Of a stretch of DNA of 64,000 bases, positions 29,043-53,694 are shown one piece after another; within the stretch, counting starts at the first letter, position 1, and every line of letters starts with the position of its first letter. Source of the stretch: Candidatus Latescibacterota bacterium (GTDB lineage: Bacteria; Latescibacterota; UBA2968; UBA8231); assembly GCA_963422735.1 (NCBI GenBank), contig OY730476.1, positions 4,448,001 to 4,512,000 on the forward strand, given 5' to 3'. The notes under the pieces were generated by a model. The model was not told the origin of the DNA. It worked only from the letters and a program-made list of their open reading frames with translations, and ran no database searches. The position numbers were made by a program, and so were the translations under genes.

Positions 29043-30995
29043 TTACCAACTCATTACGTAATTGCCGCTAGTGCCGTTCAAGTAGTCGATAAAGTACCAC
29101 ACCCCGGCGGTGACGAACTGGCCGAGGATCAGGCCCAGAAAGAAGGGCTTGGTCTTCAGATAGAGCCGGGGACCGCCGTATTTCATCACTACTGTCTTGA
29201 GCAACCAGGCCAAAAAGACGCTGAAGAACATGGTGCCGAAGACGGCGCTGATGGGAAAGCCGAGGGGATGGAAAGGCCACCATAAAAATCGCTGCCGCGC
29301 CAGCATGAGTAGCCCCATAACCCCGGCACCAATTCCCGTGTAGCCCCAGTTGGCCCAATTGGGACCCGTGGGAGCGGCAATGCGGGCGGCGGCATTGTCA
29401 AAGGGATAGCGGGCGGCTCCGCCAAAAAAGAACTGGTCGGTATTGATGCCGCCGTAGCGATAGGCTAGGTCGATAATGGCCCAGATCGATGCCCCCAGCG
29501 TCGCGACAATGGCCACCAGCATGGCCCAAAAGACCAGCCGACGGCCTTTGGAGATGGTCTCTTCGACCAGCTTGAGGCCGTTGGCGCAGGAGGCCATGAC
29601 AAAGGTGAGAATGTCCGAGGCCCAGACATAGGTAAAGGCCAAGGCGACGGTGCCAGTGGAGCCTAGGGCGCGGGTGCCAAAGCCGGCGGCGACGAAGTCC
29701 GAGGCGATCATGGGGGCAAAGATGAAGGCCACCCCCCCTTCGGCGACCACGCGGGTGATGCCGATGAAGAGTAAGAAAGCGAGGATCAGGTAGATCGGCG
29801 TGATCCAGGCCGGCAGCCCCGATTTCCACAGCCAGACGCCCATGAATGCAAGGCTACCCAACAGCAGGAAGAAGGCGGTCCGGTAGGAGAGGATCTCATC
29901 TTTGTCGTCGACTTTGGGATTGAGGCCCAGGGCCTTGCCGACGACGGCCTTCAAGTGTCCCCGAGCAGTCCACAGACCAAAGAGCACCAGCACTAGAATA
30001 GCGCCAAAGCCCTGATGCACGACAATGGAGCCGGTATAGGCGCTGTACACGCCGAGGACGGGATCTATGATCTGGAAGCCCAGGATGTTGAAAAGGCCCT
30101 GCTGCATGGTATTGAGCAGATAGAAGAAACACAGGCCAAAAGCGATATCCGGGTTGACGAAATAGGAGAATCCGATCATTTGGAAACTAATGCGCAACGG
30201 AATGTGGATGGTGTCGCGGAAAAGAGATACCGAGGTGTCGAGACTGACCGTGGGCACAAAGGGGAAATAGTGGTTGAGGCCGTTGAGGCTTTGCAGGATG
30301 GCCGGCAGAGCAAAGCCGACCCACATGAGTGGATTGCGGAAGAAGGGCTTGAGCAGTGAGCGGCTGTCCTCATCCCCCTGGATCATGGACAGCGGTACCT
30401 GCACCAAAGGGAAAATCAGGCGCTCGCGCTCAACCCATTGGCGGCGCAGAATGACCATGGAAGTGATCATGGCCAGATAGAGCGCCAAAATAAAAGGCAA
30501 CCAGTAGGCCAGCGGCCGGAGCCACAAATTCCAAGGTATAGCTTGGCCTTGGGGAGCCCCTTCGTAGAAGTGTTGGATGCGGGTGAAGTCGTGATGCGGA
30601 ATTATCCAGTCCGGCACATAGGGTAGGACTAGTTCGTTCCAGTTGTTCTCGGGGGTGGCATAGTAGATCAGGCTGGTGATATCGGGTAGCAAGAAGGCGG
30701 TCAGGCCCCATTCGGGGATGGAGGTGGCGACGATCCACATGATGTAGATCAAGGCCAGCTCGGCCCGGTTCAGCATCCACGAGCGGCGCACGATCCCCAG
30801 GAGGGAATTGCCGCAGAGAATTAGAAAAAAAAAGAGGATGATGGCCGCCGGCGTATTGAAGTAGGAGGCGATGCGCGAGCCGTGCAGCACCATGTTGCAG
30901 TAGGGGATGCCCATACCAATGGCCCAAGCACCGGCCGCGCCGACGAGGAGGGCGCGGAGGCCGGGCCTCTGTGAGGTAGATGAAGTCGCGGTCAA
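29043..30995 (-). CDS. DUF6785/DUF6784-type polytopic membrane protein (putative peptide transporter)
   Basis: RRQWVERERLIFPL, WWPFHPLG, KYGG and PFFLGLILG; many TM helices. Confidence 0.8.
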   Translation of the reverse strand: MTATSSTSQRPGLRALLVGAAGAWAIGMGIPYCNMVLHGSRIASYFNTPAAIILFFFLILCGNSLLGIVRRSWMLNRAELALIYIMWIVATSIPEWGLTAFLLPDITSLIYYATPENNWNELVLPYVPDWIIPHHDFTRIQHFYEGAPQGQAIPWNLWLRPLAYWLPFILALYLAMITSMVILRRQWVERERLIFPLVQVPLSMIQGDEDSRSLLKPFFRNPLMWVGFALPAILQSLNGLNHYFPFVPTVSLDTSVSLFRDTIHIPLRISFQMIGFSYFVNPDIAFGLCFFYLLNTMQQGLFNILGFQIIDPVLGVYSAYTGSIVVHQGFGAILVLVLFGLWTARGHLKAVVGKALGLNPKVDDKDEILSYRTAFFLLLGSLAFMGVWLWKSGLPAWITPIYLILAFLLFIGITRVVAEGGVAFIFAPMIASDFVAAGFGTRALGSTGTVALAFTYVWASDILTFVMASCANGLKLVEETISKGRRLVFWAMLVAIVATLGASIWAIIDLAYRYGGINTDQFFFGGAARYPFDNAAARIAAPTGPNWANWGYTGIGAGVMGLLMLARQRFLWWPFHPLGFPISAVFGTMFFSVFLAWLLKTVVMKYGGPRLYLKTKPFFLGLILGQFVTAGVWYFIDYLNGTSGNYVMSW

Positions 30996-31055
30996 GGGAT
31001 GGGTTGGGGGTCAGGGGACGGCTGCATGGGGAGCTATATTGGCGGGGTGGCGATG

Positions 31056-34000
31056 TCAGTACACCACCCCGATCAGGCGCGTCTCGCTGGTGTGGGACGC
31101 AGAGGCTGCATCTACGTCGGCGTCTATCTTACACAGATACGCCCCCGGCGGCACGAGTTGCCCGTCGTCGTCGCGGCCGTTCCAAGTGAATACCTGTTCC
31201 CCAAAGCCTTGCCGACTCCCGCTCCACACGGAGTGCCCGGCCAAGTCGAAGATGCGCACCTGGATGGTGCGCTCAGCATTGAGGTTGCCGAGCGCAAAGC
31301 GGATGTGGGCTTGATCGTTGGTGCCGTCGCCATTGGGGGTAAAAGGGTTCGGCGCGATGGCGAACCCCTGTACGACGCGGTCGGACAAGGGCACGGAGAT
31401 GCTCAGGGCCGTACTAGGCGTCAGGGTCGTGGCGTCTCCCGGATCGACTTGCTGATAGGTATCGGGAAAAGCCGAATCGCGGATTGCGGCATCTACAGTG
31501 GTGCCATTGAGCAGCACCGAGGCGTGGAAGCGCACCCTCACCAACTCGCCGGCTGCAGCGATGGACCCTTGCTGGCTCTGGGGCAGGGCGTTGTACGCGG
31601 CTTGAGTCAATGGATTCCCCTCGCGGTCAAAAGGGAATTCTCCGCCTTTACCTATCAGTCGGCGAAAGTAGCGAATCTCGCCTTGGAGCGAATCGGCCAA
31701 GCTCCGGTATGCGAACTCCTCTACGGCCTCTAAGTTGCGGCCCCGCAAGGCGAAGTAGAGGATGTCGCCCTGCTCCTCGATCGGTAGGCCGAGATAGGTC
31801 AGCTCGTTGAGTATGCGACCGTCGCCATCTACGGGCACCTGCTCGTCCTCTTCTGTCACGACCCGATAATAGGTGCGGGTGTCGTCATCTGCGGCCTGCA
31901 AGGCCACCTTTTCGGGTAGGAGCAACCGCAGGCCGGTGTTGGCGTCCGCCGGGAAGATCTTCAGGGAATCGCCAGTGGCCGCATCAACCAGCACATCCGC
32001 GCCGGAGGCGGAGAAAAGGCGACGGGGTTGGCCACGGTCAAAATCTTCCTCTCGGCCGAGAGCCACGTCGGCAATGGAGAGTGCCTCTATGGGCGCGGCG
32101 TCCAGCAGGATCTCGTCAAAGCGTCGGCTGGGCGGCCCCCCGGGCTGGTGCTCCACAAAGGTGGGATTGAGGTAAAGCGCGAACTCGCGCGTTTCCCGCG
32201 GCTCGACCGTATTGGGCCAGATTTCGGCAACGGTCCGGTGCGCCACTGGGGGCAGGAATTCCACGGCGATGGACCGTAGGCTGGCTGCTACGTCGGGCGA
32301 GGTGGAAAGCAGCCGTGCTTGGAGCTGCAAGAAGCGGCGCGGACTGGGGGAGGTCACGAGCTGGTCCGAGCGGGTATAGTGCTGGCTCCAGCTACTCCAG
32401 CCGCCGCCGGGTTGCAGACTATTCATGATCGGCCCCTTAAAACTGGTCGGCAGGTTTGTGTACTCGGTTTCGGTTTTGGGGTCGCCGCCGTTGCCGTAGT
32501 ACTCGACGATTTCCACGAGGCGATCGCCGGTGCGCGTGCGGATCTGCACATCGACCCGTTCTGAGTCCGGCAAATCGGCCTCCCATTCGATGTGGCCGAG
32601 AATGACCGAGCCGGGCAGCTTGATCATCGGCGAGGTGAGTGTGACCTCAGAGGGGTAGCCCTCGCCGAATAGCTGCACCTCGCGGATGCGGTCGCCGGTG
32701 TTGTACCCGCCAGCGCGCCCTACTTGGCTAGTGAATATCTGGCTGGTGAGGTAGCGCACTTGCTCGAGCTTTTCAAACTCGCTCTCCACAGTGCCGCCGT
32801 TTTGGCGATGCATCTCGCGCCACTTTAGGCTGCCGTTGGAATCCCGGGTGCCATCGGAGATGCGGACGACCATTTCGTCCACTCCGCTGATGCTACCAAC
32901 CATGCGGAAGTAGTTGAGCCAGAAGCGCGCCCCTAGGTCGAGGGTCATAATGCCGCGTTCTTCAAAGCGAGGGTCAGGCGACCAGACGAATTGGAGGAAG
33001 TTGCTCTCGTAGCGACCGTCGAACCCGGGCAGGCCGCCGAAGGTGCCAGTCAGTTCGACGCTGCCGCCGCCACCGATGACGTCGAGGGCGATGTTGTCGC
33101 CTTGGGTCCACACTTCTACGGCCGCTAGGCGAGGCCGCTCGCGTCGGTAGTGGACGAGGCGACCGCGGCGTTCGGGAGCGACGTCCTCGTATATGCTGCG
33201 GACGACTTTGGTCTCAGTGCCAGCCGCGTTGACGATGTGGTAGTCGATGCCACCCTGTTCGTCGAGCGGCAGGGCCGCGAACTCGGCTTCGGTCACGACC
33301 GCAAACTTGTCTAGTTTGCTATCGGTGACTGCGATGCGGAGGATGTGGAGTTGCTGGTAAATACCCTCGTCGTCCGGGTCGAGGTTGAACTCCACCGAGG
33401 TTTGGTCTTCGACCGGGGCAATAGTGCGGTCTATGAGCGACAAAGCCGCACCCCGCGCGTCCGAGGCCGTTCCGAGCAAGCGAACTTGGCGGAAAGGCTC
33501 GCCCTTGTTGGGATCTAGGAAGCGCAGCACCACCTTGGCGATTGGGACTAGCCGGCCCAAGTCGATATCGACGGTCCAATTTTCGAGCGAGTGGTTGTGG
33601 TATTCGACGCGGCGATCACCCGGAGCGGCTGCTTCGTACGCGGCTTCATCTACCCGCCGCTCTAGTCCATCGTCACCTTTGACAAAAAAGTAGATAGGCC
33701 CTTTGGCAGCCGGCGCGAGGCCGTTGTATTCGGTGCGGGATACTAAGGTGGTGGGTTCCCAGTAGGTCGTGGGGTCCGCGTCGAGAATGGCTGAGGCGGT
33801 TTCGACGCTAGTGCCGGCTTGGCGGATGCCGCCGTGATAGTAGTACCAGATAATCGGATCGCCGACCTCGATGTTCTTCTTTTTGTTGGCCTTTAGATAG
33901 ACGATTGGCTCCCCAGCCACGGTGGCCGGGGCCGTGCGGATGTTGAGTGGTATGGGGCGGTCGGCGCGATTTAATTCCTTGGCCAGCTTGTCGTATGCAC

Positions 34001-34262
34001 TCTGGTTGCCGATCAGGGTCTGGAAGCGATCGAGGTCTATTATGGCGTCGGTCGCTTGGCCGATGCGGCGCGGAGAGAGCGCGTGGGTCTGGGGATCGAT
34101 ATGCACGGCGTGTTTGGGCCGCGTCCAGTGCTCCCATTGCGCGGCGCGATTTATAGCCACGCCGTCGGCGGTTAGCTCAAACCCCTCTTGTGCTTCCGCT
34201 TGGCTCAAGAAAAGGAGCAACGGCAGGCTCCAGCGTTGGATGGTCATGGGGATTCGCTCCAA
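31056..34262 (-). CDS. Large exported protein with C-terminal FlgD-Ig domain (paralog A)
   Basis: Signal peptide; PNPFTPNGDG.ND and WNGRDDDG..VPPGAY. Confidence 0.85.
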   Translation of the reverse strand: MERIPMTIQRWSLPLLLFLSQAEAQEGFELTADGVAINRAAQWEHWTRPKHAVHIDPQTHALSPRRIGQATDAIIDLDRFQTLIGNQSAYDKLAKELNRADRPIPLNIRTAPATVAGEPIVYLKANKKKNIEVGDPIIWYYYHGGIRQAGTSVETASAILDADPTTYWEPTTLVSRTEYNGLAPAAKGPIYFFVKGDDGLERRVDEAAYEAAAPGDRRVEYHNHSLENWTVDIDLGRLVPIAKVVLRFLDPNKGEPFRQVRLLGTASDARGAALSLIDRTIAPVEDQTSVEFNLDPDDEGIYQQLHILRIAVTDSKLDKFAVVTEAEFAALPLDEQGGIDYHIVNAAGTETKVVRSIYEDVAPERRGRLVHYRRERPRLAAVEVWTQGDNIALDVIGGGGSVELTGTFGGLPGFDGRYESNFLQFVWSPDPRFEERGIMTLDLGARFWLNYFRMVGSISGVDEMVVRISDGTRDSNGSLKWREMHRQNGGTVESEFEKLEQVRYLTSQIFTSQVGRAGGYNTGDRIREVQLFGEGYPSEVTLTSPMIKLPGSVILGHIEWEADLPDSERVDVQIRTRTGDRLVEIVEYYGNGGDPKTETEYTNLPTSFKGPIMNSLQPGGGWSSWSQHYTRSDQLVTSPSPRRFLQLQARLLSTSPDVAASLRSIAVEFLPPVAHRTVAEIWPNTVEPRETREFALYLNPTFVEHQPGGPPSRRFDEILLDAAPIEALSIADVALGREEDFDRGQPRRLFSASGADVLVDAATGDSLKIFPADANTGLRLLLPEKVALQAADDDTRTYYRVVTEEDEQVPVDGDGRILNELTYLGLPIEEQGDILYFALRGRNLEAVEEFAYRSLADSLQGEIRYFRRLIGKGGEFPFDREGNPLTQAAYNALPQSQQGSIAAAGELVRVRFHASVLLNGTTVDAAIRDSAFPDTYQQVDPGDATTLTPSTALSISVPLSDRVVQGFAIAPNPFTPNGDGTNDQAHIRFALGNLNAERTIQVRIFDLAGHSVWSGSRQGFGEQVFTWNGRDDDGQLVPPGAYLCKIDADVDAASASHTSETRLIGVVY

Positions 34263-34266: not shown

Positions 34267-35931
34267 TCACTCGCGCTGTACTAGGCTGGCTAGCAGCGAA
34301 TCGGGTAGAGCGGTGACGAGCTGCTCGGCGGATATGTCGATTTCGTCGCGATATTTTTCCCGCAGCGATGCAATCCATTGGTCAAAGCGCGCTTGTTCGG
34401 CCTGATGCGCCAGGGCCGCCCGCGCCCGTTGCTGTGAGTGCTGTGGCTGCTCTGGGCGGGCAGGATCGGTGCGGATCACCACGAACAAGGCAAACCCTTC
34501 GCGGGTTCGCACTGGGCCGTTTAGGACGCCGACCTCGGCCCGTTGCAGGGCGCGCCAGAGCTGGGGATACGGGATGCTGTTGTAGCGGTGCATGCAGACG
34601 AGGCCGTCGGTGCGCCGTGGCCGCAGCGGAAAACCGCGGGCCTTGGCTAGGGCGACCAAATCCTCTTGGCCCGTCAAAGTGTCTTTGAGCTGCTGCGCCT
34701 CTTGCAGATTGGGCGCAATCAACTCGTCAAAGCAGATGGACTCCGGGATGGTGAATCGTTCGGGATGCGCGGCGATATAGTGATCGACATCGGCTGTGGC
34801 TACGGTGACTGAGTCGCTTACTTGGCGTTGATACACCGCTTTGAGCAGCAATTCTTCGTCGGCTTTAGCCAAATGCGCTGCGGCTTCTGGCTCTTGGTGA
34901 TAGCCCGCCTTTTCGGCCGCGTCGGCCAAAACGAGTTCCGGCAGGATAGTGCGGCGCGCAAAGGCCGCAATGGTCGCGCTGTCTTGCAGTACCTCTGGAC
35001 GCGTTATCCGATGCTTCTTCAGAACTTCTAAATATTCTTCGGTAGAAACCTGACCGCTGGCGTAAGCGAACAGAGGCGCATTCGCTCGCGATGGCAGGGC
35101 GGCTAGCCCCTGCGCGGTCAAATGCCAGCCCAATTCATAGGCGAGGAGCTCGACCTGCTGCCGCTCGACCTGCTGCCTCTTGGCTTTGGCTAGCTCTTGG
35201 GCGAGCAAGTCCCGCTGGCTATCGACCTCTATTTGGCGATCCTCTATAAAGCGCACCAAGTGAAATCGTCGGCCTAAGGGCAACGGCTCGGATACGACGC
35301 CCGTCGGCTGGTGATCGAATACGACCTCTGGAACCCCAAGGCGGCTGGCCATGGAGCGACTGACAAAGCCGATCCGACTGCGCTGGGCGGCCGCGCGCGG
35401 GTCGAGCGTGTGTTGGGCAGAGAGTTCGGCAAAGGAAGCACCGGCTGCGAGCTGGCGCTGGATCGCTTGGGCTTCGGCCTTCGTCTGGACCAAAATGGCC
35501 GTCATGAGCCGCTCGCGTCCGAGGTCTTGTTCTTCAAAAAAGTGAGCGATGTCCGCGTCCGCAACTTGCGCCTGGGGATGGAGATCGCGCTTTCGGTACA
35601 GGTTCGCCAGATAGGTGCGCCGCTGGAGTCGCTGCTCAACCCACACAGCCGGCTCACGTTCTAGTCCTATTTCGCGCGCTTGGCGCAGCATGAGTTGGCG
35701 GTCGATCAGAGTCTGCAAGTAGTCCTGCCGCGCCGCTTGCCCCTGTTGGGCCGGACGTAGCCCCGGCAATACGTTTAACGCAAATTGGCGTAGCTCTGCA
35801 CTCGTGATGGTCACATCGCCGACTAGGGCTACTGGCGGCGCATCTTGCTGGCTGCATGCGACCGACAAAACCAACGCCGCCCACGCAGCGGCGCATCTGC
35901 GCCGCAAAACATTTCTGCTTAGAGTATCCAT
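34267..35931 (-). CDS. SurA/PrsA-like lipoprotein with two parvulin (PpiC) domains
   Basis: Lipobox SVAC, SurA N-domain, GASFAELSAQHTLD and a second rotamase-like domain. Confidence 0.85.
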   Translation of the reverse strand: MDTLSRNVLRRRCAAAWAALVLSVACSQQDAPPVALVGDVTITSAELRQFALNVLPGLRPAQQGQAARQDYLQTLIDRQLMLRQAREIGLEREPAVWVEQRLQRRTYLANLYRKRDLHPQAQVADADIAHFFEEQDLGRERLMTAILVQTKAEAQAIQRQLAAGASFAELSAQHTLDPRAAAQRSRIGFVSRSMASRLGVPEVVFDHQPTGVVSEPLPLGRRFHLVRFIEDRQIEVDSQRDLLAQELAKAKRQQVERQQVELLAYELGWHLTAQGLAALPSRANAPLFAYASGQVSTEEYLEVLKKHRITRPEVLQDSATIAAFARRTILPELVLADAAEKAGYHQEPEAAAHLAKADEELLLKAVYQRQVSDSVTVATADVDHYIAAHPERFTIPESICFDELIAPNLQEAQQLKDTLTGQEDLVALAKARGFPLRPRRTDGLVCMHRYNSIPYPQLWRALQRAEVGVLNGPVRTREGFALFVVIRTDPARPEQPQHSQQRARAALAHQAEQARFDQWIASLREKYRDEIDISAEQLVTALPDSLLASLVQRE

Positions 35932-39553: not shown

Positions 39554-39576
39554 AAAATGCCTTCAAGGAGCCCGGT

Positions 39577-44498: not shown

Positions 44499-47177
44499 TC
44501 AATACGCCACGCCTACCGTGCGCACCCTACTCGTCTGACGCGCATCGCCATCTACGGAGAGCGACACCAAGTACAGCCCCGGCGGTACCCGATTGCCGTC
44601 GGCGTCGCGCCCATCCCAAGACAGACCGTCGTAGTGACCGCTCAGATCCGTTCCTGAGTAGAGCGACTTTACGAGGCGGCCAGACAGGTCGAGGACATGC
44701 ACTTCGACGGAGGTGGGTCGGGTCACCGCGAGGATGTCGTAGCCGATGGTCGCGGCGTCGTTGATGTCGTCGCCATTGGGGGTGAACACACTCGGCTCGA
44801 TGGCAAAGGAGCTGAACAGGTTGCCCTTGTTGATGTCTGGACTTAACACGGTGATTCCAGAGGCCGTGGGCAGGTCGCCTTCCCCCAAGAAGTCGGCGTT
44901 GCCCGCGGAGATGCGCTGGATGCTGCCGGCCTGCGACGACAGCACGGCCTGCCCGCGGAACAAGGTACTGTACAGCAGCACGCGCCCGCGGAACTTGATT
45001 TTTAGCAGCATCTGGCCGCCGTTGGCGGGTCGGGTGATTTGAGGAAAGCGCACGATCGCGTTGCGCTCGGTCACCGCTTGAATGACAAAGGAGCCGCCGT
45101 CCGCCGACTCTACGGCATAGGGCAGGGCGTGTTGGGTGCCGTCGAGTGTCTGTACCACGGCTTGGCCATTGGGAGCAGTCTCGATGTCGGCGTTTAGAAC
45201 CTGCTCGGCGACTAGGCGGTCGGGCAGTTCCCATATTTCGATCTGGTCGATGCCCAGCACTCGGTTAGAGGTTAGCAGTTCAAAGGTGTCGAACCCTTTG
45301 ACCCCGTCGAACTCCATTTTGGCGCGCACTGCATACGTGAAATCCACCGATTCAAAGACTTCCACCTCCCGCGGGAAGATCTCGGCGACGAGTTCCTCGG
45401 CAATCGGCGGCAGCAAGTATTCGATGGATAGCTGTTCCAATGCCTTCGTCGCGTTGATTTCGCTGTTGAGGAAATCGACAGAAAACTGGATGTAGCGACG
45501 CGGCCCCGGTGACAAAACCGGTGTGCCGCCCTCCCGTTCCCCCCCTTGGTGGGGCGACGACCAAGGGCTCCAGTTTTGTAGGTCCTCCGCGATTTCCCCC
45601 TTGCCCCAAACCTGCGGGGGCACGGCTTCGAGATCCGGCACGAGATCGAGGTATTCGTCGCGTGCGAGTTGTTCGCCCGGATGGTCTATGGAGGAGGCAA
45701 GCTGGTCATCTGACACGCGCTGCACGTTGCCGCGCTTGTAGAGTACCGGGGTTGGGTCGGTGCCCGTGCGAGTGCGGACGATGATCTCGGAGATGTCGCT
45801 GGCACCCCCTAGCTGGCGCAAGGGTTCGCTGGCCGTTGGCTCGGTGCTTTGCTGGCGGCCCGGCAGCACGGTCGCGCCGCAGTGGGTCTGGAAGCACTCG
45901 TACACGTTGGTGTAGCCTTGGTTCGCGGTAAAACGCGCCGTTGGAGCGCAGTCGCCGTAGTCGCTTGGGATGGCGTTGGTCGTGGTGAATACCGCGGATT
46001 CGACGCGGCAGGTACTGGCTTGGGGAGTGGGTCCGGTTAAATTGCTGCGGGTGCGCAAATCCACGGTTTTTTCGCGCCAGCTTACATTCCCCCAAGTGGC
46101 CGGTGCGCCCAAGTCGTACACGTGGGAGATGTAGCGGCTAGTGCCGATAAAGCCCTCGCCGAAGACCTCGAACTCGTCGATCTCATAGGGAAAGGAGGAC
46201 GTGGATTTGAGCCGCACAAAGCGCGCGGTCTGGGCGGGGTCAATCAACACTTCCACTACCGATTCTTCGTTGCTCGAGGTCTTCAGCAGCATCTCGAAGT
46301 CGTCGAGTTGGGGCACGAGGCGTCCGGTGCCGTCTAAGACGAGATTTTGCCCATTGTGGGCAAGCAACTCGAACTGGCGGATAAAGTCCGTCTGAAAGGG
46401 ATATTGGGGTGCGCTCTGCACGGTGTTGCGCGGATAGAAGCGGATGCGGTTGATGCCAATGGGGCTGCCGAGGTCGAGGACGATAAAGGTGCCTAAGGCC
46501 CCGAAGGTGCCCTTGCGGGCGAACGCATCTTCGGCTCCACCCGGCTCGATTAGCTCCAGCAGGGTCGCCTCCAGCGTAGATGCGGGCACGTCCTTGATGG
46601 CCGGTGCCGCAATGCCGCCGCCCCACCCGAGCGCGTGCAGGGCCACGTTCTCACCGCGGACGACGTGATCCGGGCTCAACAAGACCGGCAGGATGAGCGG
46701 ATCGACGCCTGCCGAGTACACCGACTCTAGTGCGGTGGCGACCCGCGCAACCGCTTCATCGAGGGGAATATCGTCTGCAAAATCAATGCGAATCAGGGAG
46801 AGTCCCTCGCGCTGGGCAGGCGTGATCGTCGTTGCCCCCGGCAGGGACGAGACTGCGTCTAGCAGCTTTTCTTCGGCTAGGGCCAGTTCTCCAGCGAGCA
46901 GTTCGGGCGGTGCTTGGATGAGGGTCTTGATCTGTACTTGGGGGCTTACCACCGCTAGATTGGACAGGTCAATGACGTTGCCCGGTACATTGCCGACCTC
47001 AGTGAAGAACCGGCTGACTTTGTATTCGGCAGGGAGCGGCTGCACGGCTGCGCCGAAGGTCTGCCCGGCCCAAGAGACGTTGCCGTTGTTGCCTACCCTC
47101 AGGGTATCGAGTGCCGGCAGGTCGGTGCCGAGTGCCAGTGCCCCCCAGAGGGTGGCCAACATGAGCCGATAAGGCAT
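44499..47177 (-). CDS. Large exported protein with C-terminal FlgD-Ig domain (paralog B)
   Basis: Signal peptide; DLG..INRIRFYPR, FTPNGDDIND and WDGRDADG.RVPPGLY. Confidence 0.85.
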   Translation of the reverse strand: MPYRLMLATLWGALALGTDLPALDTLRVGNNGNVSWAGQTFGAAVQPLPAEYKVSRFFTEVGNVPGNVIDLSNLAVVSPQVQIKTLIQAPPELLAGELALAEEKLLDAVSSLPGATTITPAQREGLSLIRIDFADDIPLDEAVARVATALESVYSAGVDPLILPVLLSPDHVVRGENVALHALGWGGGIAAPAIKDVPASTLEATLLELIEPGGAEDAFARKGTFGALGTFIVLDLGSPIGINRIRFYPRNTVQSAPQYPFQTDFIRQFELLAHNGQNLVLDGTGRLVPQLDDFEMLLKTSSNEESVVEVLIDPAQTARFVRLKSTSSFPYEIDEFEVFGEGFIGTSRYISHVYDLGAPATWGNVSWREKTVDLRTRSNLTGPTPQASTCRVESAVFTTTNAIPSDYGDCAPTARFTANQGYTNVYECFQTHCGATVLPGRQQSTEPTASEPLRQLGGASDISEIIVRTRTGTDPTPVLYKRGNVQRVSDDQLASSIDHPGEQLARDEYLDLVPDLEAVPPQVWGKGEIAEDLQNWSPWSSPHQGGEREGGTPVLSPGPRRYIQFSVDFLNSEINATKALEQLSIEYLLPPIAEELVAEIFPREVEVFESVDFTYAVRAKMEFDGVKGFDTFELLTSNRVLGIDQIEIWELPDRLVAEQVLNADIETAPNGQAVVQTLDGTQHALPYAVESADGGSFVIQAVTERNAIVRFPQITRPANGGQMLLKIKFRGRVLLYSTLFRGQAVLSSQAGSIQRISAGNADFLGEGDLPTASGITVLSPDINKGNLFSSFAIEPSVFTPNGDDINDAATIGYDILAVTRPTSVEVHVLDLSGRLVKSLYSGTDLSGHYDGLSWDGRDADGNRVPPGLYLVSLSVDGDARQTSRVRTVGVAY

Positions 47178-47298
47178 AAAAACCTGCCTGTTAGGAATGA
47201 ACATGCTAATATAAAACCTAGCCCAAAGAGTGCATAGCGGGTTTTTTTTTAGTATGTTGCATCCCCGCCCTCCACCCCTTAAAAGTCGAGGTCGAGAT

Positions 47299-49431
47299 AT
47301 GCTCTTTGTTGGTCTTTTGCTCGGCGTGCTGGTCGCCTCGCCGGCCCTCGCTTTCAACGCGTACAAACTCGGAGGCGAGGACGGCAATGCTTGGATGGCG
47401 GCCCTGTCCTTTGAGCCGGGCCACTACGCGGTGCTCGACAGCGCAGGCGCGCCGCTTGAGATGCGCCCGGTGGCTTCCAATATCGCCTATGCCACTTGGG
47501 AAGACACGCTCAACGAGATCGTCGATGCGGACGATGGGCAGTGGATGCGCCCGTTTTTCGTGCCGCCGGATCTGAACTTGGCGCACCCCGAGGTCCGCAC
47601 TCGCATCGCCCGCGGTATTTCCAACAACATCACCACCAGCGGAAGCTGCAGCGACATCTCTACCCAATTGGTGCAGGTTGCCCCCATGTTCGACGGCGAT
47701 CCCAACACGGCGGCGTTTTTCAACGTCAGCACTAGTGCAAGCAGCGGGATCCAGAGTCGGTTGTACGTGCAAAATTCGATTGTCGAGCTGGGTGTTAATT
47801 ATCCTATCAATCGCATCCGCTTCTACCCGCGACTGGGCACTACCAACCCCAAAATCGACGAACTGCTCGCGTTGATGGGAGAGCCGCGCTTGGCCAAGGA
47901 AGACTTGGCCGAGGAGGATTTCACCGAAAACTTTCTACCGTGGTACGAGGTCTCGGCGGCCAATAGCTCCAACAACTTTGCTTCCCACTGCTATTTGAGC
48001 ACCCCCGAAAACCGCTGGTTCACCCGGATAAGCAGCACCCGCGTGGACGCGCCCAACGACTCGCGACTACTTACCCTGAGCAAGGAAACCGAAAATTTGG
48101 ATCCAATCGTCGATATCCGCTTCCCAACCGAGCAGTTCCAGTGGGTGGCCGTGCGTTCGCTCAATCCGATTGAAAACTGGGAGATCGCCGAATTTGAGAT
48201 CTTTGGCGAAGGCTTTGTCGAACGCGCCGTGTACACCACGACCGTGCTCGACTTTGGTAATCCCATGGCGTGGGGCAAGATCCGCTGGGACGGCGCGTTC
48301 GAGGAGGGGTCTAGTGTGATTATTCGCACTCGCTCGGGTAGCGACCCAGACCCCAATTTGTACTGGGTGCCGAGCAATATAGAAGGCGAGCCGACGCAGC
48401 TAATCCGCAAGGAGTTTGAACGCGCCGATTTGTCCGTGCGCTTTACGACCCTCGACGAAGAAAACTGGAGCTTCTGGTCGGCACCCTACGCGCTGATGGC
48501 TGGTCAGCGCGACTCTACTCTAGAGGCGGCAGAGTGGGCAGACGGCACCCCAATTCTCTCGCCCGGCCCCGAACGCTATTTGCAAATCCAGGTCATCTTC
48601 CTGTCGAGCCTGCACCAGGCTGGCGCACTGCGCGAGCTAGAAATTCAGTTCGCGCCGCCGGCGGCCTTAGAGGTCGTCGGGGAGATTTGGCCGCAGGACG
48701 TCTCGCGCAGCGGGAGCACGAACTTCACCTATAGCGTGCGCCCGACCTTTGCTCCAGGCGACACGGGCTTTGATCGGCTGGAAATTTTCACCCTGACCCG
48801 CGCCGAGGCCGTACATGCCGTGCGCGTTGATGGCGTCGCCTTGGACAGCGACTTTCCGGTCGAAATCCACGACGACCGCATCGTCGTGGCCCTGCCCAAG
48901 CTGGCGGGCACGAACGACACGTACAAGCTCATCGAGGTGGAGTTCGCCGCCCACGTGGTGCGCTATGGAACCCAGTACCAAGGCTGGGTCTTCGACAGCG
49001 AGAGAGACGGCGTCAAACAGCTCATTGACCCTGGGGACGCCAACATTGACTTTCCGGGCAACGCCCTCGGGGTGCGCACCGACGAGCTGGGCGCGAATCC
49101 GCTGACGCAAGTTCGCGTCGCGCCCAATCCATTCACCCCCAATGGCGATGGCCTTAACGACGCGGCCGAATTCCGCTTTCAGCTACACGACGTGTCGGTG
49201 CAGCGTGCGCTCACCGTGGGCATCTTCGATCTGGCTGGCCGGCCGGTGCGCCAGCTAAGGCATTTAAGCGCGATTCGCGGCTTGTTCGACCGCGGAGCAG
49301 CCGTGCCGGTGTGGGATGGACGCGACGACGCGGGCCAACAGGTGCCTCCGGGCCACTATATCTATCGCATCTCACTGGACACAGATGCAGAGACCGCGAG
49401 TCGGGTTGGCACTATCTCGCTCGTCTATTGA
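47299..49431 (+). CDS. Large exported protein with C-terminal FlgD-Ig domain (paralog C)
   Basis: Signal peptide ALA; INRIRFYPR, PNPFTPNGDGLND and WDGRDDAG..VPPG.Y. Confidence 0.85.
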   Translation: MLFVGLLLGVLVASPALAFNAYKLGGEDGNAWMAALSFEPGHYAVLDSAGAPLEMRPVASNIAYATWEDTLNEIVDADDGQWMRPFFVPPDLNLAHPEVRTRIARGISNNITTSGSCSDISTQLVQVAPMFDGDPNTAAFFNVSTSASSGIQSRLYVQNSIVELGVNYPINRIRFYPRLGTTNPKIDELLALMGEPRLAKEDLAEEDFTENFLPWYEVSAANSSNNFASHCYLSTPENRWFTRISSTRVDAPNDSRLLTLSKETENLDPIVDIRFPTEQFQWVAVRSLNPIENWEIAEFEIFGEGFVERAVYTTTVLDFGNPMAWGKIRWDGAFEEGSSVIIRTRSGSDPDPNLYWVPSNIEGEPTQLIRKEFERADLSVRFTTLDEENWSFWSAPYALMAGQRDSTLEAAEWADGTPILSPGPERYLQIQVIFLSSLHQAGALRELEIQFAPPAALEVVGEIWPQDVSRSGSTNFTYSVRPTFAPGDTGFDRLEIFTLTRAEAVHAVRVDGVALDSDFPVEIHDDRIVVALPKLAGTNDTYKLIEVEFAAHVVRYGTQYQGWVFDSERDGVKQLIDPGDANIDFPGNALGVRTDELGANPLTQVRVAPNPFTPNGDGLNDAAEFRFQLHDVSVQRALTVGIFDLAGRPVRQLRHLSAIRGLFDRGAAVPVWDGRDDAGQQVPPGHYIYRISLDTDAETASRVGTISLVY

Positions 49432-49436: not shown

Positions 49437-51263
49437 ATGTACTGGGGAAGGGGTGCGCTGTGGTGGGTCGCTTGGGCCGGTCTGCTGCCGGCGTGTAAGC
49501 CGGCCGACGCGCCCGTCGTCGCCGAGGTTGGTCCGCACCGGATTGAGGCTGACGAGCTGCGCGCTTACGTCGCGCAGCTTCCAGCCGAAGACCTTGGTCT
49601 GTTGGACGCAGTCCGGCCCCCAGATGCGGCGGTTAGACGCCAATATCTCCAGCTAATCATAGATCGCTATTTGTTGCTGTCGGAGGCCCGCACTCAGGGC
49701 TTGGACAGTACGCAGCTATCCGCAGAAGAGATCCGCACCTATTACCAAGACCAGTATCCAGCCGCCTTGATGGAGGGCGAGCGCGGGGCTTTGTTGGCGA
49801 CCTTGCGAGAACAGCACGGCCACGAGGTGCGCGTCTATCCCAAGCCGCTAAAACGGGCATTGCCGGATTCATTGCTGGCGCGCAAGGCCCAGCAGTGGGG
49901 AGTGCTGTTGAGCCAGCGCGGGGGAACTTTCCTCAAGCAGGGTCGCCACCGCAAGGCCCTCGCCGTGCTGGAAAGAGCAGTCGCGCATGCTCCCGGCCTC
50001 GCGCAGACGCATTTCTACCTAGGTTTGGCCCATGCTCGCTTGGAAGAAAACGAGCAGGCCGCATCTGCGTTTGAACGCGCCGTGGCTCTTGCGCCGGAAG
50101 AGGCAGACTTTCACTACGCATTGGGCACCACCTTGCAGATGCGGCATCAGTACGAGGGCGCGGCGGCCTGTTTTCAGCGGGCTATTGAACGGAGCGCGGA
50201 CCAACCCCACTACCACTTTCGCCTCGGAGAGGTTCGTCGATCTTTAGCTAACTTTGAGGAGGCATTGACCGCGTACGGTGCGGTGCTCGAATTGCAACCC
50301 GACCACGCCGGAGCCTTGTACCGGCGCAGCGACTTGCTGGCTCGCAGTGGCGATTTGGCTGCAGCTGCGGCCGGGTTTAAAAGGGTCTTAGATTTGGCAC
50401 CGGAGAACGCGGCGGCCCTCGTCGATTTGGCCGGCGTCTATACCAAGCAGCAGCGTCATCCTGAAGCGGTCGCGGCCTTGGAACGCGCTCTTGAGTTAAA
50501 TCCGGTAGAGCACAGTATCTATTACCTGTTGAGCTTGGCATACGCGCAGGTGGGGCAGCCGGATCAAGCTGCGGCAGCCGCAGCCGAATTCCAGTCGCTG
50601 AGTGCGGCGGACCGCCACTACAAGGAGGGGCTACGCAATGCCAATCGCGGCTCTTGGGATCGCGCCGTTGACCTGCTAGTCCGTGCCGTGGCGGCTGATT
50701 CCTCCCACGTGCTAGCGCATATTCGCTTGGGCATGGTCTATCTGTATCAAGACGCGCCCACGCAAGGCATCTCGGTCCTCAAACGCGCGCTCGTGCTGGC
50801 TCCGGGCCATCTGGAGGTTCACTGCCTGTTAGGCGAGGCATACGCAGCTAGCGGCCAGCCGGACTCTGCTCGCCATTTTTTTAACCGAGCGCTTGGTGTG
50901 GATTCTATTTCCGTGCGGGCGCATTGCGGCTCGGCCAAGGTGGCGTACCAAGACGGCGACCCACAGGCCGCGGTGATCGCCAGCCAACGCGCCTTGGCCA
51001 TCGACCCCGATCACCGCGACAGCCACTATTTGCTCGGGTTAGCGCACGTGCAATTGGGGCAGTCGCGCAAGGCTTGGCGCAGCTTTCAGGCGTGTATTGA
51101 GATCGATCCCGGCGATGTGGAAGCTCTTTACAGACAGGGCTTGCTGTTGGTGCGCCACGGCTCGGTGGACGAAGCCCGGCGCGCCTTTGTCAGGATCTTG
51201 CAACGCGATCCCAATCACGTGGAGGCGCGACAACAGTTGGCGCTATTGGAGCGGGAGCAATGA
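49437..51263 (+). CDS. Lipoprotein with a SurA-like chaperone core fused to a TPR array
   Basis: Lipobox LPAC; N-region resembles the N- and C-termini of 34267-35931; roughly a dozen TPRs. Confidence 0.8.
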   Translation: MYWGRGALWWVAWAGLLPACKPADAPVVAEVGPHRIEADELRAYVAQLPAEDLGLLDAVRPPDAAVRRQYLQLIIDRYLLLSEARTQGLDSTQLSAEEIRTYYQDQYPAALMEGERGALLATLREQHGHEVRVYPKPLKRALPDSLLARKAQQWGVLLSQRGGTFLKQGRHRKALAVLERAVAHAPGLAQTHFYLGLAHARLEENEQAASAFERAVALAPEEADFHYALGTTLQMRHQYEGAAACFQRAIERSADQPHYHFRLGEVRRSLANFEEALTAYGAVLELQPDHAGALYRRSDLLARSGDLAAAAAGFKRVLDLAPENAAALVDLAGVYTKQQRHPEAVAALERALELNPVEHSIYYLLSLAYAQVGQPDQAAAAAAEFQSLSAADRHYKEGLRNANRGSWDRAVDLLVRAVAADSSHVLAHIRLGMVYLYQDAPTQGISVLKRALVLAPGHLEVHCLLGEAYAASGQPDSARHFFNRALGVDSISVRAHCGSAKVAYQDGDPQAAVIASQRALAIDPDHRDSHYLLGLAHVQLGQSRKAWRSFQACIEIDPGDVEALYRQGLLLVRHGSVDEARRAFVRILQRDPNHVEARQQLALLEREQ

Positions 51264-51272: not shown

Positions 51273-52928
51273 TTAACGGTTTGGTTCTTCCACCACCAAA
51301 AGCTGATTTGCGGTCACATCCTCTAAGTGCTGTGTGCGGCCCGAAGGCCAGTGGATTTCGATTCGCTCGGCTGTGGTGTTCGCGCCTAAGCCGAAGTGGA
51401 CGCGCCCGTCGCTGTGCGAAAGGAAGCTGCCCCCGCTGACCCGCTCGGCGATCTGTTCGACTTCGCCGCTGACCACGGAAATCCGCGCCCCGATGCCATC
51501 GCGATTGGATGCGGTACCGATTAACAGCAGGCTCAGCCAGTTGCGCTGATTACCACCGTCGTTGCGCAGTAGTTGCGGCGGCCCGTCGAGGTTGAAGACC
51601 AAAACATCTACATCGCCATCGTTGTCGTAGTCCCCCTTGGCAGCACCGCGGCTGACGGCGGGGCGGCTCACGTCCCCGGCTGCGACTTCTGCAAAGCGGT
51701 AGGCACCGGCTGGCCCCTGATTGGCGAAAAGCTGGTTGGGTTCGGCGTAACCATCGGGCGCAAGGTGCCGAATTTGGGGATAGACGTGGCCGTTGGCGAC
51801 GAATAGGTCTTGGTCTTGGTCGTTGTCGTAATCGAGGAAACAGGTGCCAAAGGCCAAGTGGGGCAGGCTCGGCTCGGCGAGGCCGGCTTCGGCGCTGGTC
51901 ACAACAAAGGTACCGTCGCTGCGATTGCGGTAGAGAGTATTGTAATCGTCCTCAAAATGGGTCACCAGAAAATCGCCAAACCCGTCGCGGTCATAATCCC
52001 CATAGGCAATGCCCATGCCGGCCTGCGCCAACCCCTCGGTACTGAGGGCCACACCCGCCGCAACGCCAATATCGCGGAAGGTGCCGCCCTCATTGCGGTA
52101 GAGGAAGTTGGGCGCGGAGTCGTTGGCCACGTAGAGATCGGGGTCGCCGTCTTGGTCGTAGTCGCAAAAAAGGGCGCCGAGTCCGTAGGTCGGCTCTGCT
52201 TGTTCGACATGGGCTTGGCGGGTGACATTGCGAAAGGTGCCATCGCCTTCGTTGCGGTAGAGGGCGTCTTGTGCGCCGGGGAGGCCGAGCGGCCCGGCGA
52301 ACACGAGAACTCCCTTCCACATTCCGCCCCGAGGCGGCACACGCTCGGGCGCGAAGTGTAGGTACTGGGCTACGTACAGATCAAGGTCGCCATCCCCGTC
52401 GTAGTCGCCGAAGCTAGCACCCGTGCTCCAGCCCGCCAGATTGACGCCGGCGACCTGGCCGACATCGTGGAATCGGCTATTGCCCTCGTTCCGGTAGAAG
52501 ATGTTGGGGCCGTAATTGGTCACATATAGATCGAGGTCGCCGTCTTGGTCGTAGTCGGCCGCCGCGCAGCCCATGCCCCAACCCGCATCGCCGACCCCGG
52601 CCGTGCGGGTATAGTTTTCGAAGGTGCCATCGCCCATGTTGCGGTAGAGGGCGTTGGTCGGGGCCGCGGCCGAGTCGGGATAGCCTTCCAGCCGCGAGCC
52701 GTTGACCAAGTAGATGTCGAGCCAGCCATCCCCGTTGTAGTCGAGAAATGCGCCACCGCCGCCCTTGGATTCGAGGATGTAGTTTTTGACCCGGCTGCCC
52801 GAGTACATACGGAAATCCAAGCCGTGCGCTGCGGTAACGTCGGTGAAGCGCACAGAGGTGAGGTCTGGTGTGGGGACGCAGGCTGCCAAGGCCAGCAGGG
52901 CGCAGTAGGCGCAAGTGCTAGGGCGCAT
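51273..52928 (-). CDS. CRTAC1 family (FG-GAP repeats + ASPIC/UnbV) lipoprotein
   Basis: Repeated DYD.DGD.DL motifs; SNRDGIGARI, VHFGLG and WPSG. Confidence 0.92.
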   Translation of the reverse strand: MRPSTCAYCALLALAACVPTPDLTSVRFTDVTAAHGLDFRMYSGSRVKNYILESKGGGGAFLDYNGDGWLDIYLVNGSRLEGYPDSAAAPTNALYRNMGDGTFENYTRTAGVGDAGWGMGCAAADYDQDGDLDLYVTNYGPNIFYRNEGNSRFHDVGQVAGVNLAGWSTGASFGDYDGDGDLDLYVAQYLHFAPERVPPRGGMWKGVLVFAGPLGLPGAQDALYRNEGDGTFRNVTRQAHVEQAEPTYGLGALFCDYDQDGDPDLYVANDSAPNFLYRNEGGTFRDIGVAAGVALSTEGLAQAGMGIAYGDYDRDGFGDFLVTHFEDDYNTLYRNRSDGTFVVTSAEAGLAEPSLPHLAFGTCFLDYDNDQDQDLFVANGHVYPQIRHLAPDGYAEPNQLFANQGPAGAYRFAEVAAGDVSRPAVSRGAAKGDYDNDGDVDVLVFNLDGPPQLLRNDGGNQRNWLSLLLIGTASNRDGIGARISVVSGEVEQIAERVSGGSFLSHSDGRVHFGLGANTTAERIEIHWPSGRTQHLEDVTANQLLVVEEPNR

Positions 52929-53694
52929 GGGAACGGGCGCAGCGGAAGCCGATATAGGGGCTGCGTTCTACGGGCAAAACCTCAAAGCGGTTGATGCTGC
53001 GCAGCACCGGTTTTGGGTTGATCCACGAGCCGCCGCGCAGGACCTTGAAGCGGCCGGCCTCAGCTCCTTGCGGGTCTTTGTTCGGAGCCATGGCGTAGTA
53101 GTTCGCGTTGTACCAATCGGCACACCATTCCCAGACGTTGCCGGCCATGTCGAGCGCACCGTACGGGCTGGCTCCTGCTGGAAAGGAGCCGACTGGTGCT
53201 AGCCCGGCATAGCCGTCTTCCGGTCCCCAGAGATTGGCGCGGCCCACCGCAAAAGCCGCGCCCCAAGGCCAGAGCCGGCCGTCGCTGCCGCGCGCGCTTT
53301 TTTCCCACTCGGCTTCGGTGGGAAGCCGTCCGCCGCGCCAAGCGCAATACGCTTGGGCGTCTTGCCAGCTAACATAGACGACCGGATGGCTTGGATCGAC
53401 TGCTGCGCCGGGGCCGTGGGGCTGACGCCAGCTAAGGTCGTCGGCCTTTTCAGCCCCGAATTTTTCTGCCTCCGTCTGGTAGCCTGTGGCCGCGACAAAG
53501 GCGGCGAAGCGGGCATTGGTGACCTCGTAGCGGTCGATAGAAAAGGTGCTCAGATAGACTTGGCGGCTGGGTTTTTCGTCGGTGGCTCGCGGGTGATCGA
53601 TGCCCATGGTGAAGGGACCGGCTGGCACGACGACCTCGTCGGCAGCAACAGGTGCCGCCAGTAGCAGGGCCGATAGGATGCGCGAAATCCGCAT
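52918..53694 (-). CDS. Formylglycine-generating enzyme family (SUMF1/FGE-sulfatase domain)
   Basis: RLPTEAEWEK, DMAGNVWEW, RGGSW and GFRC; lacks the catalytic CxxxxC. Confidence 0.92.
   Translation of the reverse strand: MRISRILSALLLAAPVAADEVVVPAGPFTMGIDHPRATDEKPSRQVYLSTFSIDRYEVTNARFAAFVAATGYQTEAEKFGAEKADDLSWRQPHGPGAAVDPSHPVVYVSWQDAQAYCAWRGGRLPTEAEWEKSARGSDGRLWPWGAAFAVGRANLWGPEDGYAGLAPVGSFPAGASPYGALDMAGNVWEWCADWYNANYYAMAPNKDPQGAEAGRFKVLRGGSWINPKPVLRSINRFEVLPVERSPYIGFRCARSHAP

Follow-up and report, generated by a model that had tools for sequence, protein, structure and literature searches.

A highly amplified surface cassette of Latescibacterota, built around an undescribed family of predicted outer-membrane barrels and linked to type IX secretion

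What function unites a block of about 25 kb, made up almost entirely of envelope genes, in the genome of a Candidatus Latescibacterota bacterium? The block occupies positions 29043..53694 of a 64,000-nt stretch of contig OY730476.1, which we call the window. It encodes three large exported proteins with FlgD-Ig-like tails (parA, parB, and parC; the par family), a 902-aa candidate beta-barrel (o902), a lipoprotein with two parvulin-type peptidyl-prolyl isomerase domains (PPIase), two GT-C glycosyltransferases with TPR repeats, a membrane protein of the DUF6785 family, and a small secreted protein resembling CBM9. A first-pass annotation, made from the letters of the DNA, had proposed one self-contained system that exports, folds, and glycosylates its own surface proteins. 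ORF listing and Pfam/NCBIfam scans confirmed that all the genes it named are real open reading frames (ORFs), and no flagellar or type IX secretion system (T9SS) core gene was present among the window ORFs scanned. What emerged extends beyond the window: a surface cassette, specific to the phylum, highly amplified, and linked to the T9SS, with a barrel family not described before at its center.

Cassette copies in the genome and the phylum

The genome (4.95 Mb, 95% complete) was labelled for these families by blastp with the window proteins. ORF calling used a simple longest-ORF routine, which makes starts and counts approximate. The labelled ORFs comprised 85 par, 37 barrel, 36 DUF6785 (30 of them longer than 600 aa), 24 PPIase, 14 CBM9-like (plus 8-9 diverged copies, up to 23 in total), 42 CRTAC-like, 27 TPR, 15 GT-C, and 6 FGE genes; the Pfam model for DUF6785 gave 42 matches. 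Twenty-six clusters held a barrel together with at least one other core family, and two gene orders recurred, 'par par par barrel (barrel) PPIase' and 'PPIase par barrel GT-C par par barrel CBM9-like'. The share of the genome is 6.8% for the four core families, 8.0% with DUF6785 included, and 11% for all nine labelled families.

To quantify linkage, we counted how often a gene has a given partner family no more than five genes away and compared this share with 200 random placements. A par gene was found near 95% of barrel genes (17% expected), a barrel near 86% of CBM9-like genes (7% expected), and a barrel near 67% of PPIase genes (8% expected). The families cluster far beyond chance. DUF6785 is only loosely linked to the cassettes (36% near par against 16% expected). 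CRTAC genes had a TPR gene nearby in 55% of cases against 6% expected, which indicates that CRTAC and TPR form a module of their own.

The identity matrix of the barrels correlated with those of their neighbors: r = 0.43 for PPIase (16 pairs) and r = 0.64 for the CBM9-like proteins (11 pairs), values reached by none of 2000 permutations in either case, and r = 0.64 for DUF6785, reached by 94 of 2000 permutations with only 6 pairs. This is the pattern that en-bloc duplication and joint divergence would give. We conclude that the genome holds about 26 paralogous cassettes, of which the region is one; this replaces the idea of a single system. The core of each cassette consists of two to four par genes, one or two barrel genes, a chaperone lipoprotein (the PPIase), and a small CBM9-like protein with an SWGxIK tail. 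The GT-C/TPR enzymes and DUF6785 are best read as accessories of the sub-type to which the window's cassette belongs.

A scan of one genome per species returned at least 648 stretches encoding barrel relatives. The 69 loci closest to the window's barrel were kept, all from Latescibacterota metagenome-assembled genomes (MAGs) or from MAGs labelled Gemmatimonadota, Woeseia, or 'uncultured'. Par genes were present in all 69 loci, GT-C in 60, PPIase in 51, CBM9-like in 41, and DUF6785 in 21, with the recurring order (DUF6785) PPIase par barrel GT-C par par barrel CBM9-like. The rearranged gene order of the window is kept in its orthologous loci (L023-L032). Median same-strand gaps were 16.5 nt for PPIase-par, 17.5 nt for par-barrel, -4 nt for GT-C-par, and 7.5 nt for barrel-GT-C (56 pairs); across the operon, the medians span -4 to 22 nt. 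The families are thus not scattered in related genomes, and the first-pass proposal of a lineage-specific envelope module holds in this respect. The cassette is best read as a Latescibacterota-specific, massively duplicated, outer-membrane type.

Profile searches for the barrel, par, and PorU were then extended to a phylum sample of 121 genomes. The barrel was found in 71, par in 70, and PorU above its cut-off in 71. By family, barrel and par were present in 40 of 40 genomes of f1, in 0 of 29, 0 of 13, and 0 of 2 genomes of f2, f3, and f4, respectively, and in 1 of 5 of f8, with the other families nearly all positive. Barrel and PorU occurred together in 66 genomes, PorU only in 5, the barrel only in 5, and neither in 45; the five barrel-only genomes are mostly incomplete or fragmented assemblies. 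Because relatives are not independent, this co-occurrence amounts to a few contrasts, not 121. The 44 genomes of f2-f4, which are labelled 'same class' as the window's genome, are missing barrel, par, and true PorU all together, and their only PorU-like match (225-280 bits) falls in ORFs of about 1900 aa. All three occur in more distant families of the phylum. This pattern suggests that the three were either lost or acquired together.

Parts of 31056-49675 were matched by contigs of four metatranscriptomic libraries from two studies (runs X17 and X20, labelled 'sponge metagenome', and X18 and X19). With 90-95% identity, the contigs derive from relatives and not from the window's strain. They cover the CBM9-like gene, the barrel, the start of the second GT-C gene, parB, and parC; such libraries may carry over DNA, and the contigs cannot rank expression.

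Two cassettes carry paired ExbD-ExbD genes near the barrel (C1:1252982-1258627, locus L099; C1:2316006-2316835, locus L106). Besides these, L099 has genes for ExbB, a PPIase, a recurrent lipoprotein of about 250 aa, and a TPR/YfiO-like protein of about 1090 aa, so that cassettes of this diverged type would be equipped with a proton-motive-force motor. The lipoprotein belongs to a cassette-linked family of about 240-300 aa, encoded at ten loci (C1:2558278-2558991 and C1:3735767-3736492 among them). Its members conserve the stretches 'NPYTFGDW' and 'FTVF..V.N..YPKV', and Pfam matched none of the five that were scanned. The lipoprotein beside ExbD was considered as a TonB and rejected: the ten sequences show no Pro-rich linker, and there was no TonB_C match.

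The core proteins and the secretion parts of the genome

The barrel gene (39577..42285, + strand) gave no Pfam or NCBIfam family at E<=0.01, and a profile search of PDB sequences was empty. It encodes a signal peptide and a conserved, aromatic-rich N-terminal stretch of about 115 aa (residues 22-135) that was not confidently folded in the model. An AF2 model built from 36 homologues (pLDDT 64, i.e., moderate; pTM 0.67) has about 24 long antiparallel strands of 10-17 residues at 136-238, 398-488, and 624-899, while a beta-sandwich is inserted at about 255-390 and an Asp/Asn-rich loop of low confidence lies at about 495-620. Foldseek placed MtrB first (E 2e-9), followed by SlpA, FimD, LptD, and SprA, with TM-scores of 0.15-0.3, and the rows listed at E<=1e-3 were all membrane barrels. 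An exhaustive VIA search likewise returned 50 rows, all membrane barrels of many families, at Z 8.9-14 (Z 9-14 for FhaC, TamA, BamA, and LptD), and none stood out. The fold class is therefore supported and the family unassignable. The first-pass suspicion that this product is a barrel agrees with the model, in which o902 appears as a large outer-membrane beta-barrel, of roughly 24 strands, from an undescribed family. Profiles for PorP_SprF, Plug, and the TonB-dependent receptor did not match it, and SusC (5t3r_D, Z 11.4) was one of the many barrels. A complex prediction of PPIase residues 27-554 with barrel residues 22-135 scored 0.01, which speaks neither for nor against contact.

The three tailed proteins are paralogues, as the first-pass annotation had it, and are 30-41% identical over their C-terminal halves. 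ParA (31056..34262, - strand, 1068 aa) is predicted to be a secreted multi-beta-sandwich protein, with CHU_C (39.2 bits) and FlgD_ig (25.7 bits) matches at its C-terminus; a PDB sequence search with it returned only FlgD (E 0.015). ParB (44499..47204, - strand, about 892-901 aa) has an FlgD-Ig/CHU_C tail (FlgD_ig 35.1 bits); its ORF extends to 47387, and the true start is probably M62 or M71, i.e., 47204 or 47177, as a signal peptide follows M62/M71. ParC (47299..49431, + strand) combines discoidin/F5_8-type-C-like and other beta-sandwich domains with a similar tail (CHU_C 32.6 bits); its ORF opens at 47230, and the start at 47299, giving 710 aa, is probably the true one. The family has 2621 representatives at E<=1e-3, with a conserved core at about residues 260-710 of parC, and its profile matched F5/8-type-C/CBM32-like chains (E 6e-7 to 1e-3) and FlgD Ig domains (2e-10). 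The AF2 model of parC (pLDDT 86) is all-beta, a chain of beta-sandwich domains; by fold it matches PorU, complement MG domains, and arrays of adhesin Ig/Fn3 domains. A catalytic fold in par was considered and rejected, as Foldseek gave only beta-sandwich arrays, PorU, and galactose-oxidase N-domains.

The tails suggest a secretion route. By hmmscan, the CHU_C model (PF13585, gathering threshold 27) was exceeded by both parA and parC. Genome-wide, 74 ORFs pass this model, of which 65 are par and 54 lie within 10 kb of a barrel. The type-A model TIGR04183 is passed by 45 ORFs; 39 of them are not par, and 8 of the 45 are within 10 kb of a barrel. Twelve ORFs are in both lists. Judged by these profiles, the window tails are type-B-like T9SS C-terminal domains (CTDs) of the CHU_C class, distinct from the 45 type-A CTDs of the genome. 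Passages of PMC12618676 describe five conserved type-B motifs as needed for secretion. For Bacteroidota, passages of PMC9143113 and PMC12618676 describe a linkage between genes for type-B cargo and those for cognate PorP/SprF barrels; these barrels bind the cargo or shuttle it and determine where it ends up.

Parts of a T9SS are present elsewhere in the genome. SprA_N scored 84.3 bits (cut-off 27) in a 2140-aa open frame at C1:2397761, PorU scored 632 bits against a cut-off of 420, and an adjoining PorV-like ORF scored 152 bits, below its cut-off of 250. The GldL, GldM, and GldN models had no match in this 95% complete genome, and the control genomes were likewise silent; the best GldK matches reached 65 bits or less against a cut-off of 350 and fell on small FGE-domain paralogues. 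With nothing convincing for GldK/L/M/N, a working Bacteroidota-type T9SS is not demonstrated, and since the controls were silent for most Gld models, absence from the genome is not established either. PorP_SprF (PF11751) matched nowhere in the genome, again with silent controls. The missing parts are either too diverged to detect, or the phylum runs a reduced T9SS. In the genome search that the first-pass annotation had called for, SprA is present above cut-off, a PorV-like protein below it, and PorKLMN was not detected. With SprA, PorU, and a PorV-like protein encoded elsewhere and tails that match CHU_C, the new export pathway that it had proposed is unneeded.

The chaperone lipoprotein gene (34267..35931, - strand) ends 4 bp from parA. 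The protein has a lipobox-like signal and matches Rotamase (45 bits), Rotamase_2 (44 bits), and, weakly, SurA_N_3 (20.2 bits, below 27.2). A profile of 33 homologues aligned residues 32-267 with the whole Cbf2/PEB4 chain (3rfw, E 4e-20) and residues 288-537 with the whole of HP0175 (3e-18), and also matched SurA (2e-16) and the PrsA parvulin. Alignment to two whole chains indicates that the PPIase is a tandem chaperone-parvulin. Its 24 paralogues share a mean identity of 25%, and most have a lipobox Cys followed by acidic residues. A dedicated folding helper, as suggested in the first-pass annotation, is plausible, and its modules are of the PrsA/PEB4/HP0175 type.

The CBM9/DOMON-like gene (37872..38792, + strand) encodes a secreted protein that ends ...STWGRIKTEFNH. 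The window protein scored 22.4 bits with CBM9_1 (cut-off 23.4), paralogues in other cassettes scored 38.3, 45, and 65 bits, and CBM9_1 was annotated on 13-94% of the members of the matching Atlas clusters; the family profile found only a chance-level row among PDB sequences (E 0.47). The tail 'TAVE-x3-(S/T)WGx(I/V)K-x2-F' (window 38750-38792) is present in 22 of 23 paralogues of the genome and in all 40 homologues from other MAGs, and no Pfam or NCBIfam model covers it. A WGxIK-type tail also occurs on about 38 ORFs genome-wide, without a following membrane helix, and W[GA]x[IVL]K in the last 25 residues was found in 44 of 4815 ORFs against about 4 expected. The tail-bearing ORFs include the CBM9-like family, two FGE-domain proteins, and fasciclin-like and other small secreted proteins.

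Three residues of the CBM9-like protein drew attention: His26 (37947-37949), which is the predicted +1 residue after AxA cleavage, His111 (38202-38204), and Tyr203 (38478-38480). His26 is kept in 57 of 63 homologues and His111 in 44 of 63, never without His26. Tyr203 is invariant, with both His, in the window-type sub-family that bears GT-C. An N-terminal His as a family-wide feature was rejected, as it occurs in about 16 of the 23 paralogues of the genome, and it is kept as a lead for the sub-family. No Pfam match to lytic polysaccharide monooxygenases was found in the protein. The arrangement is reminiscent of histidine-brace metal sites.

Accessory genes and surroundings

The first GT-C gene (GT-C1, 35980..37722, + strand) encodes a TMTC-like enzyme with PMT_2 (41.0 bits, cut-off 26.1), TPR repeats at 377-570, and TMTC_DUF1736 at 21.7 bits, below the cut-off of 27. 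The stretch 'FVFDD' near its N-terminus may correspond to the acidic loop-1 catalytic motif of TMTC enzymes. GT-C1 is present in the orthologous loci L023-L032. The second (GT-C2, 42290..44491, + strand) starts 4 bp after the barrel gene and has PMT_2 (40.0 bits) and TPR repeats at 434-716; the weak DUF1736 match occurs in GT-C1 only. In the whole genome, a GT-C gene lies within five genes of 11% of the barrels. GT-C thus accompanies only a cassette sub-type, in which GT-C2 is the conserved partner of the barrel, and at that low share glycosylation cannot be the core function. Gene adjacency is what would connect these enzymes with the par proteins as possible glycosylation substrates.

The DUF6785 gene (29043..30995, - strand) is the last of the PPIase-parA-DUF6785 operon, 60 bp from parA; both this gap and that of 4 bp before it are as first noted. 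It encodes a polytopic membrane protein of 650 aa (DUF6785 429 bits, DUF6784 95 bits) with about 12-15 hydrophobic segments by hydropathy, probably an inner-membrane permease. A phmmer search of the PDB returned nothing. Kinship with OPT transporters (PF03169) was tried and rejected, with no match at E<=10 for 7 paralogues; OPT was annotated on 11% of the members of one archaeal Atlas cluster for DUF6785, which is a lead only. Five of the 30 full-length DUF6785 genes have a membrane protein of about 1470-1610 aa within three genes, four of them directly adjacent (e.g., C1:1238275-1244863, C1:4743774-4751181, and C1:3361337-3368151). Two of these five large proteins were scanned and have Peptidase_M28 and FtsX-like permease domains. 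One DUF6785 lies inside a fused open frame of 2094 aa (C1:1561688-1567972).

Downstream of parC, a gene for a probable TPR lipoprotein (49437..51263, + strand) encodes about 13 TPR repeats, recognised by TPR families. Its SurA_N-like N-terminus is 42% identical to PPIase residues 16-91 and has a lipobox-like LPAC. The ORF runs from 49311, the true start is probably 49437, and the 5-bp gap to parC reported earlier holds with this start. At the periphery are a CRTAC1-like FG-GAP/ASPIC-UnbV protein (51273..52928, - strand; FG-GAP_3 183 bits, UnbV_ASPIC 78 bits) and a small secreted protein with an FGE-sulfatase domain (52918..53694, - strand; 235 bits). The latter, which scores highest in the genome with the GldK model (65 bits), and its paralogues at C1:2606939, C1:4765826, and C1:2418902 are the best GldK matches of the genome, though far below threshold. 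Of the six FGE copies, three have a par gene no more than five genes away, and the SWGxIK tail is found on two. According to passages of PMC12635249, a disulfide bond joins GldK, a lipoprotein of FGE fold, to the PorP-like SprF in Bacteroidota; FGE-domain proteins as GldK-like partners are a lead only.

A terminator-like GC hairpin with a T-run, read from the sequence, follows the CBM9-like gene (approximately 38832..38867, + strand). Between it and the ribosome-binding site of the barrel gene is a stretch of about 695 bp (38867..39561) that is single-copy in the genome, flanked by an 8-bp direct repeat, AAGGAGCC, and absent from relatives' contigs. X17 and X20 each contain one contig that links the CBM9-like gene to the barrel by joining 38866 to 39562, and in nine other loci the gap between these genes is 59-146 nt. 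The stretch resembles an insertion that duplicated its target, or else the relatives carry a deletion. Two ORFs in this part were taken as non-genes: one of 162 aa (38866-39354, - strand) without relatives, Pfam match, or paralogue, and an antisense one of 285 aa (37932-38789) without relatives.

The cassette is preceded by a MoxR/DUF58/.../DUF4175 operon (20218-28930) and followed by GlnRS, and an Rfam search of the window returned nothing. Farther upstream, two genes (16998-18637) that weakly match GIY-YIG (E 6e-4, below cut-off) and HEPN_Swt1 split an otherwise ordinary suf operon (13690-20197) between a sufC-like ABC ATPase and the upstream SufB/D.

Possible functions and related systems

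We tentatively favor the reading that these are T9SS cargo cassettes, each with a cognate novel barrel analogous to PorP/SprF and with its own PrsA/SurA-like chaperone. The par proteins would cross the inner membrane by Sec, as their signal peptides indicate, and the cognate chaperone lipoprotein would keep par and/or the barrel export-competent in the periplasm. The class of the CTDs and the phyletic co-occurrence with PorU suggest that par would then exit through the SprA translocon of the genome. The neighboring barrel may receive them and hold them at the cell surface, a step modelled on PorP/SprF and on the gene linkage. About 26 diverged cassettes would give about 26 surface complexes that differ in ligand specificity, with glycans as the probable ligands. 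In the window's sub-type, a GT-C/TPR enzyme would probably modify a periplasmic component, and the DUF6785 permease in the same operon hints that captured material may also be taken up. The complexes may serve adhesion or uptake.

Several points weigh against this reading. The association of par with the barrel is drawn from linkage and analogy, the barrel is about three times the size of PorP/SprF, and the two share no detectable sequence family, so the analogy is functional only. No convincing match to GldK/L/M/N (PorK/L/M/N) was found in the genome. The tail of parB scored 23.6 bits by hmmscan, below the CHU_C threshold (28.5 bits in a six-frame genome search), and all three tails stayed below the cut-off of 35 for NCBIfam TIGR04131 (parA 22.8, parB 17.7, parC 24.6). 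The co-occurrence with PorU depends on few independent contrasts, mainly f2-f4 and f8, and the 69 loci, chosen for closeness to the window's barrel, over-represent the GT-C-bearing sub-type. Finally, the DUF6785 linkage, the ExbB-ExbD-ExbD genes inside two diverged cassettes, and the catabolic and transporter genes that flank cassettes fit uptake at least as well.

These last features lead to an alternative that we consider unlikely, though to be taken seriously, in which the cassettes resemble polysaccharide utilization loci (PULs). It takes up the second suggestion of the first-pass annotation, a Sus-like binding or uptake complex that feeds DUF6785. The barrel would be an import channel for polymers or oligomers, par and the CBM9-like proteins SusE/F-like binders, DUF6785 the inner-membrane carrier, and the different cassettes would serve different substrates. 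Discoidin/CBM32-like and CBM9-like domains are of the binding type, DUF6785 shares the operon here and in orthologous loci and is near par more often than expected, and the flanks contain sulfatases, enolase-superfamily dehydratases, PhyH dioxygenases, peptidases, and ABC/SSF transporters. A high number of paralogues is also a property of PUL repertoires. However, the barrel matched neither Plug and the TonB-dependent receptor nor any other Pfam model, and no gene of the cassettes was recognisably TonB-like, the 250-aa lipoprotein beside ExbD included. No glycoside hydrolase or lyase family was present in the 143 of 152 unlabelled neighbor proteins scanned (of the other nine, four are window ORFs scanned separately and five belong to the 250-aa lipoprotein family), and 64% of the DUF6785 copies have no par within five genes and sit among heterogeneous neighbors. 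A more specific and more doubtful version joins uptake to secretion, as a T9SS-dependent counterpart of the PUL whose parts are all undescribed. In it, the barrels of about 900 aa would receive or anchor type-B-like cargo and perhaps act as import pores, 'TAVE-x3-SWGxIK' would be a docking or sorting tag that directs small proteins to these complexes, and in the GT-C sub-type the mature N-terminal His, the second His, and the Tyr of the CBM9/DOMON-fold protein would form a copper or other metal site that replaces glycoside hydrolases by oxidative chemistry.

The pathway of the first-pass annotation, in which the barrel exports, the PPIases fold, and the GT-C/TPR enzymes O-glycosylate, now appears improbable. 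The chaperone is genuine, PorK/L/M/N were not detected, GT-C1 resembles TMTC (PMT_2 and DUF1736), and the adjacency of barrel and GT-C is conserved, with GT-C in 60 of 69 loci. However, most cassettes of the genome itself have no GT-C, the genome encodes SprA, PorU, and a PorV-like protein, and across the phylum the cassette families occur together with true PorU; this presence and co-occurrence indicate export by a T9SS. The absence of GT-C from most cassettes also speaks against the export of an envelope glycopolymer, with GT-C/TPR and barrel as a trans-envelope polysaccharide route comparable to those for cellulose, PNAG, Pel, and alginate and par as an accessory, which we regard as very improbable. 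The barrel and the TPR-bearing glycosyltransferase genes are almost translationally coupled, and BcsC, a PgaA-type porin, and PelB are among the fold matches of the barrel at Z 10-12.6. These matches do not stand out from dozens of unrelated barrels, though, no synthase, polymerase, or flippase genes were seen among the cassette proteins scanned, and about 26 polysaccharide exporters per genome are implausible.

Latescibacterota are widespread, uncultured members of the FCB group, and passages of PMC4454575 ascribe their outer-membrane traffic to 'non-specific porins'. Neither those passages nor our literature searches contained an earlier description of the cassettes, and the searches returned nothing for DUF6785, for Latescibacter with type IX secretion or FlgD, or for 'WGxIK'. 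Here, a single kind of cassette, with a central barrel that belongs to no named family, accounts for 7-11% of the genome's DNA, and the layout may be the phylum's way of building cell-surface ligand-binding machines. If the barrels receive type-B-like cargo, the Bacteroidota rule of cargo plus cognate barrel extends to another phylum with a different barrel, and the cassette becomes a model for the diversification of T9SS cargo specificity. If they are uptake machines, they represent a second, independent invention of the PUL principle. Either way, the barrel, par, DUF6785/6784, and SWGxIK-tailed CBM9-like families gain a testable context.

Among known systems, PULs with SusC/SusD share many diverged copies, an outer-membrane barrel with surface beta-sandwich/CBM proteins, nearby catabolic and transport genes, and in some copies an inner-membrane permease. 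The cassettes differ in that the barrel has no TonB-dependent-receptor/Plug signature, SusD-like genes and glycoside hydrolase families are missing, and the surface proteins bear T9SS-type CTDs instead of lipid anchors. LptD (with LptE), MtrB (with MtrA/C), and FimD, the best Foldseek matches of o902, are barrels of 24-26 strands and similar size, each encoded beside a partner and a periplasmic helper. The TM-scores are low, however, the VIA Z scores do not separate them, there is no sequence relationship, and no cytochrome, pilin, or Lpt genes lie near o902. The PPIase combines chaperone and parvulin domains like PrsA, PEB4 (Cbf2), HP0175, and SurA, to which its profile aligns, but it holds two modules in one lipoprotein and exists as 24 diverged, cassette-tied paralogues instead of one housekeeping gene. 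The TMTC/PMT O-mannosyltransferases share with GT-C1 and GT-C2 a PMT_2 membrane domain followed by TPR repeats, and TMTC shares with GT-C1 the weak DUF1736 match and candidate beta-sandwich substrates, here encoded next door; the sub-cut-off score and the restriction to one cassette sub-type set GT-C1 apart.

Close counterparts are also the type-B systems of Bacteroidota, SprB-SprF and PG1035-PorP, in which a cargo gene of the CHU_C class adjoins the gene of an outer-membrane barrel, as in the window. As in those systems, the genome has a separate class of type-A CTDs together with SprA, PorU, and a PorV-like protein, whereas PorK/L/M/N were not detected in it. In place of PorP/SprF stands a barrel of about 900 aa and roughly 24 strands in the model, with no PorP_SprF match. 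Each barrel is accompanied by two to four cargo genes, and each cassette has its own PrsA/SurA-like lipoprotein and tailed CBM9-like protein. Such cassettes number about 26 in this genome, compared with the 12 type-B substrates given for F. johnsoniae in passages of PMC12618676.

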